Source: Eledone cirrhosa
Taxonomy: Eukaryota
DNA length: 64,000 nucleotides
NCBI GenBank assembly: GCA_964016885.1
Contig: CAXHJY010001609.1
Location: 310,001-374,000, forward strand
Direction of reading: 5' to 3'
The stretch's first letter is position 1; each line of letters begins with the position of its first letter. A program made the translations under genes and the position numbers. A model generated the notes under the pieces. The model saw nothing but the letters and a program-made list of their open reading frames with translations. It was not told the origin of the DNA and did no database searches. Shown here one piece after another: positions 1 to 50,316 of this stretch.

Positions 1-327
1 AAGTTGAAAAAAATGAAAATGAAATTTCATTTCTCACTCTTAGTATAGCACTTACTTAAATGTAAGTATGTATGTATACGTACATACATATATGTATACA
101 GACGTACAGTAGCATGCATATATATACATATATATATATATACATATATATACATATATATACATATATACATACAGGTACACATACATATATGCACGCA
201 TCAGTTTAGCGGACGTTTATTACAACGCCGCTTTGTTCGTTTGTTTGTCAACAAACCGAAAAGCCTGAATTTATGCCATACGGTGTTAAGGCAACCACGT
301 CACCTTTTTGTTCAACACTGACACAGG

Positions 328-372
328 AACGATGTACTAGTTTCAAGTTTGTTAGCTATCATCAGCACCGTT
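328..372 (-). ncRNA. Type I minimal hammerhead ribozyme, first of ~23 copies in array A
   Basis: Minus-strand consensus: aacggtg-CTGATGA-t-agct-aaca-agct-t-GAAA-ctag-TA-catcgtt. Stem I 7 bp, conserved core, stem II with AACA loop, palindromic stem III, GUA cleavage triplet. This particular copy has one stem II mismatch (aact for agct). Confidence 0.9.
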
Positions 373-445
373 TACCCATCTGCCAGATAGTTGAACGTTC
401 GAAAGTATATACTTTCCTTATGAAAATTAACGGCTGAGCAGCCTA

Positions 446-453
446 ATTTGCAT
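446..453 (-). promoter_or_regulatory. Octamer motif ATGCAAAT, one per unit of A/A', upstream of the HHR on the sense strand
   Basis: ATTTGCAT on plus. Retained in diverged family B at 12398-12405. Function is inferred only. Confidence 0.45.
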
Positions 454-44701: not shown

Positions 44702-45400
44702 ATATATATATATATATATCTATATATATATATATATATCTTTATATTTATTTATATATATATATATATATATATATATATATATATATATATATATATA
44801 TCTTTATATATATATATATATATATATATATATCTATATATATATATATATATATATATCTATATATATATATATATATATATATATATATATCTATATA
44901 TATATCTATATATATATATATATATATATATCTATATATATATATATATCTATATATATATATATATCTATATATATATATATATCTATATATATATATA
45001 TATCTATATATATATATCTATATCTATATATATCTATATATATATATATATATATATATATATATATATATATATATATCTATATCTATATATATATATA
45101 TATATATATATATATATCTATATATATATATATATCTATATATATATATCTATATATATATATCTATATATATCTATATATATATATCTATATATATCTA
45201 TATCTATCTATATATATCTATATCTATATATATCTATATATATCTATATCTATATATATCTATATATATATATATCTATATATATCTATATATATATATA
45301 TATATATCTATATATATATCTATATCTATATATATCTATATATATATCTATATCTATATAAATCTCTCTATATATATATATCTATATATATATATATATA
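44702..45400. repeat. (TA)n/(TATC)n microsatellite
   Basis: Directly visible. Confidence 0.9.
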
Positions 45401-46517
45401 GTAAATAAACATTCACTTCCATCCTGACGTCACTAGCCCCGTTTTTTCCTCATGTGCTTTTTCATAAATACACATGAAGGCGAACTAGCCAGTTTTAGAA
45501 TTCCCTTTTTCGGACTATATTACTGTGAGAGCCCTGGTTTTCTGTTGAGCTCTGCTGATGAATGATATTCCAACCGTGACCATCTCCACTGAAAGTTTTC
45601 ATGAAATAGTCTTTTAAGACTATACAGAGCATTTGATGTTATTCCAAATTGAAGGATAAGTGTTTCAAACTTTGTTTTATCATGAGTTAAAGGTCTATAG
45701 ATTTTTCCATGGATTTTACTAAATTCTGTGGATGAATTTGTATCCTGATTCTCTTTTGAGATGAGTTTGAGTTATTTTTCCTAAATCTTTCGTTAACTAC
45801 TTTTCCCATCTTGACGTTATAGTCGCATATATGTTATAGAATGCCGTTAGCTTCTTGCTAAAACAATCTCTATACGTCTCATTTATATTTATACTCGGAT
45901 TCTTTTCCTAGAGTGCTTAAACTATCTGTGACTAATCACGGTTTTTTTCATAAAAACTGTGATAATTATTGCTATTTTTGCTGAACTCCTTGTAGAGTTT
46001 TTTTCAGAATGTATTTGACTGCTATTTCTTGTAAATAAACATTCACTTCCATCCTGACGTCACTAGCCCCGTTTTTTCCTCATGTGCTTTTTCATAAATA
46101 CACATGAAGGCGAACTAGCCAGTTTTAGAATTCCCTTTTTCGGACTATATTACTGTGAGAGCCCTGGTTTTCTGTTGAGCTCTGCTGATGAATGATATTC
46201 CAACCGTGACCATCTCCACTGAAAGTTTTCATGAAATAGTCTTTTAAGACTATACAGAGCATTTGATGTTATTCCAAATTGAAGGATAAGTGTTTCAAAC
46301 TTTGTTTTATCATGAATTAAAGGTCTATAGATTTTTCCATGGATTTTACTAAATTCTGTGGATGAATTTGTATCCTGATTCTCTTTTGAGATGAGTTTGA
46401 GTTATTTTTCCTAAATCTTTCGTTAACTACTTTTCCCATCTTGACGTTATAGTCGCATATATGTTATAGAATGCCGTTAGCTTCTTGCTAAAACAATCTC
46501 TATACGTCTCATTTATA
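45401..46517 (+). repeat. Array C, second locus, opposite orientation, ~1.8 units of 630 bp
   Basis: gtaaataaac at 45401 and 46031; reverse complement of the 34828-36154 unit with several substitutions. Confidence 0.92.
45549..45630 (+). ncRNA. Family C hammerhead (second copy at 46179-46260)
   Basis: gctctg-CTGATGA-atga...tcat-GAAA-tagtcttttaagacta-TA-cagagc. Confidence 0.88.
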
Positions 46518-49122
46518 TATATATATATATATATATATATATATATATATATATATATATATATATCTATATATATATATCTATATATATATATATATAT
46601 ATATATATATATATATATATCTATATATATATATATATCTATATATATATATATATATATAGATATGTCTATATATATATATATCTATATCTATATATAT
46701 CTATATCTATATATCTATATATCTATATATATCTATATATATCTATATCTATCTATATCTATATATATCTATATATATCTATATATATCTATATATATCT
46801 ATATATATCTATATATATATATATATCTATATCTATATCTATATCTATATATATCTATATATATATATATATCTATATCTATATCTATATATATCTATAT
46901 ATATCTATATATATCTATATATCTATATATATCTATATATCTATATATATCTATATATATATATATCTATATATCTATATATATCTATATATCTATATAT
47001 ATCTATATATATATATATATCCATATATATCTATATCTATATATATCTATATATATATATATATATATATATATATCTATATATATATATCTATATATAT
47101 ATATATATATATATATATATATCTATATATATATATCTATATATCTATATCTATATATATATATATATATATATATATATCTATATATATATATATATAT
47201 ATATCTCTCTATATATATATATCTATATATATCTCTCTATATATATATATCTCTCTATATATATATCTCTCTCTCTCTCTATATATATATATATATATAT
47301 CTATATATATATATATATATATATATATATATATATATATATATATATATCTATCTGTATATATATATATATATATATATATATATATATATATATATAT
47401 ATATATATATATATATATATCTATATCTATATCTATATATATCTATATATATCTATATATCTATATATCTATATATATCTATATATATCTATATATATCT
47501 ATATATATCTATATATATCTATATATATCTATATATCTATATATATCTATATATCTATATATATCTATATATATATATATATATCTATATATATCTATAT
47601 ATATCTATATATATCTATATATATCTATATATATCTATATATATCTATATATATATATCTATATATCTATATATATCTATATATATATATATATATATAT
47701 ATATATCTATATATATCTATATCTATATATATCTATATATATCTATATATATATATCTATATCTATCTATATATATCTATATCTATATATATATATCTAT
47801 ATATCTATATATATATATATATATATCTATATATCTATATATATCTATATATATATATCTATATATATCTATATATCTATATATATATATATCTATATAT
47901 CTATATATCTATATACATATATCTATATATATATATATATATATCTATATATATATATATATATATATATATCTATATATATATATATATATATATATAT
48001 ATATATATCTATATATATATATATATATATATATCTATATATATATATATATATATATATATATATATATCTATATATCTATATATATCTATATATATCT
48101 CTATATATATATATATATCTATATATATATCTATATATATCTCCATATATATATATATCTATATATATATATATATATATATATCTCTCTCTCTATATAT
48201 ATATATATCTATATATATATATATCTATATATATGTATATCTATATATATATATATCTATATATATATATATCTATATATATATATATATCTATATATAT
48301 CTATATCTATATATATCTATATCTATATATATCTATATCTATATCTATATATATCTATATCTATATCTATATATATCTATATCTATCTATATATATATCT
48401 ATCTATCTATATATATATATATCTATCTATCTATATATATATATATCTATATATATATATATATATATATATATATATATATATATATATATATATATAT
48501 ATATATATATATATATATATATATATATATATATATATATATATATATATATATATATATATATATATATATATATATATATCTATATATATATATATCT
48601 ATATATATATATATCTCTATATATATATATCTATATATATATATATCTATATATATATATAGAGATATATATATATATATCTATATATATATATATCAAT
48701 ATATATATATATATCTATATATATATATATATCAATATATATATATATATCTATATATATATATATCTATATATATATATATATCTATATATATATATAT
48801 CTATATATATATATATATCTATATATATATATATATATATATATATATATATATATATATATCTATATATATCTCTATATATATATATATATCTATATAT
48901 ATATCTATATATATCTCCATATATATATATATATATATATATATATATATCTATATATATATATCTATATATATATATATATATATCTATCTATATATAT
49001 CTATCTATATATATCTATCTATATATATCTATCTATATATATCTATCTATATATATCTATATATATATATCTATCTATATATATCTATCTATATATATCT
49101 ATATATATATATCTATATATAT
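46518..49122. repeat. ~2.6-kb (TA)n/(TATC)n microsatellite
   Basis: Directly visible. Confidence 0.95.
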
Positions 49123-50316
49123 ATAAATTGAAACAAAATGAAAACGAAATTTCATTTCTCACTCTTAATATGGCACTTACTTAAATGTAAGTATGCATGT
49201 ATACGTACATACATATATGTATACAGACGTACAGTAGCATGCACATATATATATATATATATACATATATACATACATATGCATACAGGTACACATACAT
49301 ATATGCACGTATCAGTTTAGCGGCGCTAACGTCGCTTTGTTCGTTTGTAAACAAACTGAACAGCCTGAATTTATGCCATACGGTGTTAAGGCAACCACGT
49401 CACCTTTTTGTTCAACACTGACACAGGAACGATGTACTAGTTTCAAGCTTGTTAGCTATCATCAGCACCGTTTACCCATCTGCCAGATAGTTGAACGTTC
49501 GAAAGTATATACTTTCCTTATGAAAATTAACGGCTGAGCAGCCTAATTTGCATATTGAGTGAGTTAAATCGGTCAGGCATACCGAAAACGATAAATTGAA
49601 ACAAAATGAAAACGAAATTTCATTTCTCACTCTTAGTATGGCACTTACTTAAATGTAAGTATGCATGTATACGTACATACATATATGTATACAGACGTAC
49701 AGTAGCATGCACATATATATATATATATATACATATATACATACATATGCATACAGGTACACATACATATATGCACGTATCAGTTTAGCGGCGCTAACGT
49801 CGCTTTGTTCGTTTGTAAACAAACTGAACAGCCTGAATTTATGCCATACGGTGTTAAGGCAACCACGTCACCTTTTTGTTCAACACTGACACAGGAACGA
49901 TGTACTAGTTTCAAGCTTGTTAGCTATCATCAGCACCGTTTACCCATCTGCCAGATAGTTGAACGTTCGAAAGTATATACTTTCCTTATGAAAATTAACG
50001 GCTGAGCAGCCTAATTTGCATATTGAGTGAGTTAAATCGGTCAGGCATACCGAAAACGATAAATTGAAACAAAATGAAAACGAAATTTCATTTCTCACTC
50101 TTAGTATGGCACTTACTTAAATGTAAGTATGCATGTATACGTACATACATATATGTATACAGACGTACAGTAGCATGCACATATATATATATATATATAC
50201 ATATATACATACATATGCATACAGGTACACATACATATATGCACGTATCAGTTTAGCGGCGCTAACGTCGCTTTGTTCGTTTGTAAACAAACTGAACAGC
50301 CTGAATTTATGCCATA
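49123..50316 (-). repeat. Array A' (468-bp unit), ~2.5 copies; HHRs at 49428-49472 and 49896-49940
   Basis: ORF track period 468 (49138, 49606, 50074); same diagnostic sequence as the 32427 array. Confidence 0.92.

Follow-up and report, generated by a model that had tools for sequence, protein, structure and literature searches.

Retrozymes of Metazoa that lack long terminal repeats (non-LTR retrozymes) were defined in PMC7229834, where their circular RNAs were demonstrated, monomers of 170-400 nt were described, and Penelope-like elements (PLEs) were named as candidate mobilisers. A second source (bioRxiv 10.64898/2026.07.22.740005) reports co-distribution of retrozymes and PLEs, as well as homology to the pseudo-LTRs (pLTRs) of PLEs, and gives monomers of 51-972 bp. 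Here we describe six tandem arrays of hammerhead ribozyme (HHR)-bearing units, belonging to families A/A', B and C, in a 64,000-nt stretch of the Eledone cirrhosa genome (positions 310,001-374,000 of contig CAXHJY010001609.1, assembly GCA_964016885.1), hereafter the window, which is part of a 452-kb contig in a 3.0-Gb assembly. We conclude, with a probability of about 0.8, that A/A' and B belong to the non-coding non-LTR retrozymes and are mobilised in trans by the reverse transcriptase (RT)/GIY-YIG protein of a (TA)n-targeting PLE. A preliminary description of the window had proposed mobilisation by a (TA)n-preferring PLE for all of the arrays; the two-site tail and the inverted arms uphold this for A/A' and B, but not for C, which has one fixed end.

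Several features of PLEs are relevant to this conclusion. Hydra-clade PLEs, which target (TA)n, are defined in section 11 of PMC8557442, a source that also names the formation of tandem and inverted PLE insertions as an open question. The purified protein of the anole Poseidon PLE nicks and extends both target strands, and is predicted to act as a dimer; reverse transcription begins at two internal RNA sites, which delimit a genomic tail called unique to PLEs (PMC11167929). Head-to-head inversions have been explained by self-priming on an antisense template (PMC3846280). Moreover, a weak palindromic stem III is described as allowing cleavage of HHR multimers while avoiding it in monomeric circles, and circular PLE templates have been proposed (PMC4209133). 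Regarding HHR satellites, a small nuclear RNA (snRNA)-type Pol II promoter and a Pol III promoter lie inside the monomers of newt satellite 2 and schistosome Sm-alpha, respectively (as cited in PMC2220036).

Insertion ends and the pairing of arms

Tandem Repeats Finder and alignment confirmed the six arrays, with periods of 492, 466, 466, 630, 630 and 468 nt (Table 1). As stated in the preliminary description, all visible array ends adjoin (TA)n, two of them only by way of an inverted piece that it had not recorded (72 nt at 33414-33485, and an 11-nt stub before 12382). That description had also placed the array ends at arbitrary phases of the monomer, which holds for the 5' ends but not for the 3' ends, as these are fixed within each family. 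Counting from the predicted cleavage site, as done throughout, four of the six 3' ends inside the window lie at family-fixed sites (those at 32427 and 34828 being off-site), as does the 3' end of array A, found at the long site approximately 15.7 kb to the left of the window.

Elsewhere in the genome, A/A' and B form head-to-head two-arm units in (TA)n, with one outer end at a long site and the other at a short site. For B, 36 loci were analyzed (the 32 top-ranked matches, the window and three more; a fourth extra locus was excluded, its long arm running beyond the fetched stretch). Two arms were found in 27 of them, and both outer ends were in view in 26: long (+298 to +302) and short (+227 to +233) ends are paired in 22 loci, one end is off-site in four, and matching ends were never observed. 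The nine single arms end at the long site (five), at the short site (three) or off-site (one). The A/A' sample comprised 24 loci on contig C1, read by eye and mostly multi-hit clusters, which inflates the share of two-arm insertions and leaves the pairing unaffected; in 13 of the 14 two-arm loci, one end is long (+306 to +310, A' numbering) and the other short (+243 to +252), while the remaining one, like the two-arm A' insertion of the window, has one off-site end. Long and short sites are homologous between A and B.

Comparing the array flanks with those of PLE copies, as the preliminary description had suggested, showed that A/A', B and the two PLEs of the window (PLE-1 and PLE-2) have the same long/short pairing and the same (TA)n target. 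Both sites were used in all nine PLE-1 loci with both ends in view (17 were examined, picked by their long end, so that the second end alone is informative) and in 11 of 11 PLE-2 loci (13 were fetched). The tails measure ~62 (A), 70 (B), ~100 (PLE-2) and 134 nt (PLE-1), and the short site lies 56-64 nt past the cleavage site in both PLEs versus ~230-250 nt in A and B. As A and B carry the PLE two-site tail, they bear the mark of these elements: A/A' and B have two fixed 3' ends, an inverted 5'-truncated arm and a microsatellite target. Satellite DNA spreading at the DNA level, by unequal exchange or extrachromosomal circles and with the HHR as an inherited relic, would agree with the block duplications and heterogeneity of the 30-55-unit arrays. 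However, it does not account for fixed, strand-specific 3' ends combined with variable 5' ends, for a strict pairing common to two PLE families, or for the HHR covariation reported below. Such a process explains later arm growth rather than dispersal; largely refuted by the end maps, it is very improbable as an account of these families.

The arms themselves are informative on how the two ends may arise. Among the B loci, 12 have the longer arm on the long-ended side, and in 10 the long-ended arm is the shorter of the two. Fold-back copying, which needs one arm to be contained in the other, was rejected, as it fails for 3 of 22 B loci, where neither arm is contained in its partner, and for the PLE-1 loci L133 and L139, in which the short-ended arm extends kilobases further 5' than the tail-bearing arm. 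Two independent primings, one per site, would explain all of these arm patterns, in a process resembling the twin priming of L1 elements, except that here the two sites are both fixed. At the inner junctions, overlaps of 1-8 nt occur in 19 of 25 B loci; in A, 11 of 13 loci have overlaps of 1-16 nt, these being raw counts without a chance control. A U-rich TTTGTTT-type motif, a weak AT-rich similarity, was also noticed between the short end of PLE-1 and the long end of A and B (44680-44701, 24105-24125, 19335-19354 and 33465-33485 in the window).

Family C differs in this respect. Its arms end at +262 to +268 in 20 of 23 cases, and the 5' ends vary and adjoin (TA)n; an apparent clustering of these 5' ends near the HHR (p 0.02) was discarded as an artefact of locus choice, the loci having been picked for a full unit in phase with the query. 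In a further two-arm C locus, selected for that form, the second end is off-site. We consider C a retrozyme with one fixed priming site, and lean slightly towards a PLE as its mobiliser too. It could instead be C alone that is moved by a (TA)n-inserting long interspersed element (LINE), e.g., that at 26339-31594, through ordinary target-primed reverse transcription. A single fixed 3' end, 5' ends that vary and infrequent inversions in which the outer end is off-site (L107, L190) are in agreement with this, and that LINE is bordered by TA tracts; nevertheless, no 3' similarity between it and C was seen by eye (inspection, not alignment), and a fixed start within a tandem unit suits the internal initiation of PLEs, so that we regard the LINE as an unlikely mobiliser. 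The element in question (+ strand) is L1/Tx1-like, with two open frames of 597 and 1153 aa, endonuclease, RT and zf-RVT domains, and TA tracts on both sides, and is possibly another (TA)n-targeting element.

Hammerhead motifs, promoter lead and copy number

The six arrays contain 46 type I HHR motifs, one per unit (23+15+2+2+2+2), in agreement with the count of about 46 given previously. In the whole window, the descriptor scan retrieved 49, the others being in PLE-1 (two) and PLE-2 (one), while 30 doublet shuffles yielded a mean of 0.07 and a maximum of 1. Cleavage is predicted after GUA in A, GUU in B and AUA in C; stem III is a 2-bp palindrome in A and B and long in C, the HHR of which has a stem II region of 41 nt. 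Covariation of stems I and II was observed in a set of seven 45-nt motifs from families A, B and D (the latter described below; C was left out), with 92.9% paired positions and 20 double-sided changes, as compared to 0 of 500 shuffles and to 31-55% pairing in slid controls; since the rows are related, this figure is not a probability. Judging from this covariation, the HHR fold of A, B and D appears to be under selection. Minimum free energy folds of the short HHRs were no better than those of shuffles for A and C (z -0.2 to -0.9), with a z of -2.4 for B, and the weakness of these folds is why the HHR call rests on motif and covariation. Rfam, at gathering score, found none of the HHRs, which reflects a blind spot of the library.

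Of the three families proposed at the outset, C is indeed unrelated to A and B by alignment, whereas A and B proved to be homologous (61% aligned identity; score 273 versus a shuffle maximum of 89). The monomers have a GC content of ~35%, and the longest ATG-initiated open reading frames (ORFs) in the arrays span 45-112 aa, which bears out the earlier statement that no credible ORF is present. In accordance with the definition of retrozymes, the units are non-coding, low in GC and devoid of LTR structure (primer-binding site and polypurine tract were not searched for). Beyond the window, relatives of A, B and C with compensatory HHR changes occur at L021, L145, L154, L106 and L102, showing that the superfamilies are larger than the window suggests. 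Family D is a 310-nt tandem with a type I HHR and U-U at the stem II base (L086:4847-5500, +; L033:3480-3790, -), and a single similar HHR lies at L094:771 (-). A family D 13-mer located just past the predicted cleavage site is identical to a motif ~265 nt upstream of the U6 gene L169, and is related to a motif upstream of U2 genes.

A possible source of transcripts was found in a 12-mer, first spotted by eye and then checked. The pattern TATG(C/G)(A/T)AAT(T/G)AG was defined on five host genes of this genome (three U6 genes, U6atac and RNase MRP), where it lies at -77 to -79 with a TATA at -30; it was not in place at three further U6atac loci and at one U6 locus with a disrupted upstream region. 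The 12-mer of A and B is identical to the form found at the U6 gene L169, and all 321 matches in 1.39 Mb of fetched DNA (both strands) fall within A or B units, which would place the start of transcription at the 5' border of the extended stem I of the HHR. It was found neither in C nor in U2 upstream regions, and local alignment of whole U2/U6 upstream regions with the monomers gave no convincing match. Transcription of the arrays from a U6-type element in each unit is a tentative proposal, to which we give slightly less than even odds. In family C units, TGACGTCA forms a palindrome beside GGAAGT at 35610-35640 (+), elements that are presumably CRE- and ETS-like, and that may represent a Pol II promoter.

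Exact copies of the HHR cores, searched for with 30-51-nt patterns, amounted to 8128 (A), 948 (B) and 801 (C), with none for reversed controls. B and C matches lie on many contigs at 97-100% identity, while the A matches listed are the first 100, all on contig C1. By these counts and identities, A, B and C appear to be dispersed and recently mobile. In sequence runs labelled as two other organisms, one contig each (470-486 nt, low depth) is at least 99% identical to A'; these were not used, because trace host DNA, the simplest reading, would also give them.

Template, arm growth and candidate partners

We then considered which RNA is copied. Junction phases in B (n=50) are uniform (p 0.54), none falls within 5 nt of the predicted cleavage site, and the arms cross that site many times; uniform junctions away from the cleavage site indicate that the template is not a cleaved linear monomer. 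In a set of 136 full B units, the mean number of substitutions was 1.0 between units of the same arm, 0.6 between the two arms of a locus and 7.1 from one locus to another, and B arms differ by 0.0014 per site within a locus versus 0.0129 between loci (0 of 20000 permutations; 21 loci). Moreover, L028 and L039 are clonal arrays, in which locus-restricted variants are fixed in every unit of both arms, L039 having 14 units, identical across its two arms, that share a variant absent from every other locus examined. Such clonality requires a one-monomer bottleneck and thereby favours a circle, and we moderately prefer circular RNA to an uncleaved multimer as the template. The pLTR copies of PLE-1 were also considered and set aside as uninformative on the template, as they show two differences private to this copy.

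With the same PLE machinery, the template could alternatively be a linear uncleaved multimer, i.e., a read-through transcript of the parent array that the HHR merely processes or parasitises. Uniform junction phases suit such a transcript equally well, periodic variants in the L022, L029, L112 and L120 arrays could come from heterogeneous parents, and for the anole PLE in vitro HHR cleavage was unnecessary and unprocessed RNA was the main substrate (PMC11167929). On the other hand, the bottleneck demanded by the clonal arrays is at odds with a linear multimer, an arm of 13 units would need a transcript spared at 13 cleavage sites, and described retrozymes accumulate as circles; on balance, we find the linear template unlikely, although it deserves consideration.

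Based on these results, the following course is proposed for the PLE-mobilised retrozymes A/A' and B. Arrays would be transcribed, possibly via the U6-type element in each unit, and, by analogy with described retrozymes, tandem HHRs with a short palindromic stem III would cleave as dimers, the monomers being ligated to circles. A PLE complex would then nick a (TA)n tract on both strands, and reverse transcription would be primed by one DNA end at the long RNA site and by the other at the short site, which lies 60-70 nt upstream; the fixed paired ends are observed, while the priming enzymology is modelled on the anole PLE. Both cDNAs would pass the cleavage site for up to many units, with a circle somewhat preferred over an uncleaved multimer. 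The cDNA ends would join at short microhomologies and complete each other, resulting in a head-to-head insertion with a tail on one arm only, in keeping with the geometry seen. Some arms would later expand to 30-55 units by DNA-level duplication, as suggested by their heterogeneous block patterns. A wider proposal, which we offer tentatively and rate somewhat below an even chance, is that small ribozyme circles serve a dimeric Hydra-type PLE enzyme as template, the enzyme priming both target strands at two fixed sites on one circle and copying it in a rolling mode in both arms; two-site twin priming would then explain PLE inversions and one-sided tails generally, and A and B would be U6-promoter circles that perpetuate themselves, with every unit supplying the promoter of the next.

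A number of observations weigh against our main interpretation. The anole PLE used uncleaved linear RNA in vitro, with no strand difference between the start sites (PMC11167929). A and most C HHRs have U-U at the stem II base, a feature that accompanied weak monomer cleavage in the axolotl. The gap between 12-mer and TATA is 30-31 nt in the units versus 35-37 nt in the five host genes, and the units hold T4-T7 runs that would stop Pol III; as both argue against a standard Pol III unit, the promoter stays a lead. For the 8 A' loci, the test for arm haplotypes did not reach significance (p 0.07), and arms could likewise be made alike by a dominant master locus. The two-site signature is missing from family C, which has an inverted arm in one of 20 loci, with the end of that arm off-site. 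Among the BLAST matches listed, A, B and C share no non-repetitive homology with PLE-1 (TA/TG low-complexity matches only) and gave no match with the PLE-2 fragment. Finally, long arrays are heterogeneous, with 40 haplotypes in 54 units and repeated blocks in the ~27-kb array A. B arms of 30 and 33 units are heterogeneous too, and one of them keeps private variants common to its short partner arm; these very long arms are a later stage.

Regarding the enzyme, the preliminary description had named the element at 36478-44701 (PLE-1), intact and HHR-bearing, as an example of a PLE that could be the mobiliser. Its ORF is in fact uninterrupted, with 813 aa counted from the first Met, and its HHR is atypical: stem I is perfect over 10 bp, stem III is palindromic and stem II carries an insert of 115 nt (fold z -5.2). 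The unit measures 6.7 kb, and the 3' end has 1351 first-look candidates, some of them in tandem 6.7-6.9 kb apart. Among named homologues, the best match to the protein comes from Argonauta hians, with 42% identity across 56% of the query; Pfam gave no match in the ORF, again a library blind spot. From its predicted motifs, C-terminal GIY-YIG, (TA)n target and HHR, PLE-1 can be assigned to the Hydra clade. PLE-2 is present in no fewer than 150 copies (96-100% protein identity), and some of these have frames of ~890 aa. PLE-1 shares geometry and target with A and B, but its tail is 134 nt long as compared to 60-70 nt, and the listed matches show no non-repetitive homology: PLE-1, one of at least two apparently active Hydra families, is a candidate partner only, and its adjacency to the arrays is due to the common (TA)n target. 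Within the flanks already fetched, other HHR types were found, with stem II inserts of 26-43 nt and a palindromic stem III, often as head-to-head pairs ending in (TA)n (L102:5769/5906, L111:4851, L113:390/2993, L138, L037); these are probably the ends of further PLE families and candidate partners as well.

The abundance of such HHR-bearing PLE-like ends in the flanks, and the fact that 21 of 57 retrozyme families of Xenopus match PLE termini, are points in favour of the units being truncated pLTR ends of an autonomous PLE, tandemised in cis and with no separate non-autonomous lineage. However, the arrays are pure monomer repeats with a whole-unit period and no ORF, the position of the short site sets PLEs and A/B apart (56-64 versus ~230-250 nt past cleavage), and no PLE-1 or PLE-2-fragment match was found among those listed. 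A cis origin of this kind is improbable, while descent of the retrozymes from a pLTR is possible.

Window layout and comparison with described systems

Table 1. Features of the window, with strand and end positions relative to the predicted cleavage site.
Feature	Position	Strand	Description
Family A array	1..11207	-	23 units of ~492 nt; right end of a ~27-kb, 55-unit array
(TA)n tract separating arrays A and B	11209..12372		
Family B array	12382..19354	+	15 units of 466 nt; 3' end at fixed long site (+302)
U6-type 12-mer example in B unit	12397..12408	+	TATGCAAATTAG; TATA-like element 30 nt further
Family B HHR cores	12498 + 466n	+	Predicted cleavage after GUU
PLE-2, 5'-truncated copy, second Hydra-clade PLE	24000..26043	-	GIY-YIG frame 25405-26073; HHR core 24211; 3' end at own long site
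Family A' array	32427..33413	-	2.1 units of 466 nt; 3' end off-site (+269, within tail)
Inverted second arm of the 32427-33413 A' insertion	33414..33485	+	+239 to +310; terminates at long site in (TA)n
Family C array	34828..36154	-	2.1 units of 630 nt; 3' end off-site (+596)
PLE-1 direct arm	36478..43448	-	Partial upstream pLTR, ORF, 4-kb repeat-rich 3' untranslated region; HHR core 36807; long 3' end 36478
PLE-1 ORF	40625..43066	-	813 aa; RT and C-terminal GIY-YIG; Hydra-clade motifs RWR, DKT, YRDD, CxCx5C, CxxC, CxH
PLE-1 partial upstream pLTR	43219..43448	-	Begins within HHR stem II
PLE-1 inverted arm	43450..44701	+	HHR core 44504; stops at short site, 134 nt ahead of long site
Family C array	45401..46515	+	1.8 units of 630 nt; 3' end at fixed C site (+262 to +268)
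Family A' array	49123..50316	-	2.6 units of 468 nt; 3' end at long site (+310)

The window also holds two endonuclease-RT LINEs, at 20680-23996 (-), which is split across two frames, has a (CAT)n tail and which we take to be RTE-like, and at 52597-55734 (+). In addition, there is a tRNA-like sequence at 60411-60474 (-; Rfam, 32 bits), probably the head of a short interspersed element, and a 120-bp tandem of 4.3 copies at 63395-63910.

Searches of the literature did not turn up these families, two-arm retrozyme arrays with a tail, or a strict pairing of long and short ends, although the supplements of the retrozyme and Hydra-clade papers could list relatives; the available part of PMC13282606 makes no mention of ribozymes or satellites. 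To date, mobilisation of retrozymes by PLEs has been based on co-occurrence and pLTR similarity, and the young families described here give a direct genomic signature, in which every two-arm insertion uses each RT start site once and the B arms come from one haplotype. This signature predicts exact priming positions on the 466-nt RNA, linear or circular, for the intact 813-aa enzyme of the same genome, and may serve as a diagnostic for PLE-dependent elements in other genomes. Moreover, the analysis of ends makes a standing question on PLE insertion testable.

Among PLEs, PLE-1 resembles the Hydra clade of PMC8557442 in its predicted RWR (for RWK), DKT, CxCx5C, CxxC and CxH motifs, C-terminal GIY-YIG, HHR and insertion in (TA)n, and PLE-2 has the same endonuclease motifs. 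PLE-1 differs in its unit of 6.7 kb versus less than 3 kb and in the 115-nt stem II insert of its HHR, and the tails of PLE-1 and PLE-2 (134 and ~100 nt) exceed the 30-40 bp given for PLEs. Two internal RT starts, extension of both strands, head-to-head arms and a one-sided tail are in agreement with the anole Poseidon PLE (PMC11167929) and with the structure described in PMC3846280; in those works, as far as consulted, the two sites were not linked to the two arms, whereas here each site is used once per insertion. Similarly to newt satellite 2 and Sm-alpha (PMC2220036), A and B are HHR satellites with a candidate promoter in the monomer, but this candidate consists of a U6-type upstream element and a TATA-like box, with a spacing 4-7 nt shorter.

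The arrays also resemble the metazoan non-LTR retrozymes of coral, mussel and axolotl (PMC7229834; bioRxiv 10.64898/2026.07.22.740005), which likewise are non-coding tandems with one type I HHR per unit and a GC content of less than 50%, are dispersed in thousands of copies, have a stem III that is short and palindromic, and coexist with PLEs; the U-U at the stem II base of A and most C HHRs recalls that of the axolotl HHR_Amex2. Monomers of 466-630 nt, which had been thought unusually long, exceed the 170-400 nt of PMC7229834 but fall within the 51-972 bp of bioRxiv 10.64898/2026.07.22.740005. In the retrozyme papers, as far as their available parts go, expression and circles are demonstrated, PLE mobilisation is deduced from co-occurrence, shared HHRs and pLTR homology, and array ends are unmapped; what distinguishes the Eledone cirrhosa arrays, as known from genome sequence, is their fixed paired ends, inverted arms and (TA)n targeting. 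A, B and C are new families within a known class, and the genomic evidence that they offer on mechanism is unusually clear.

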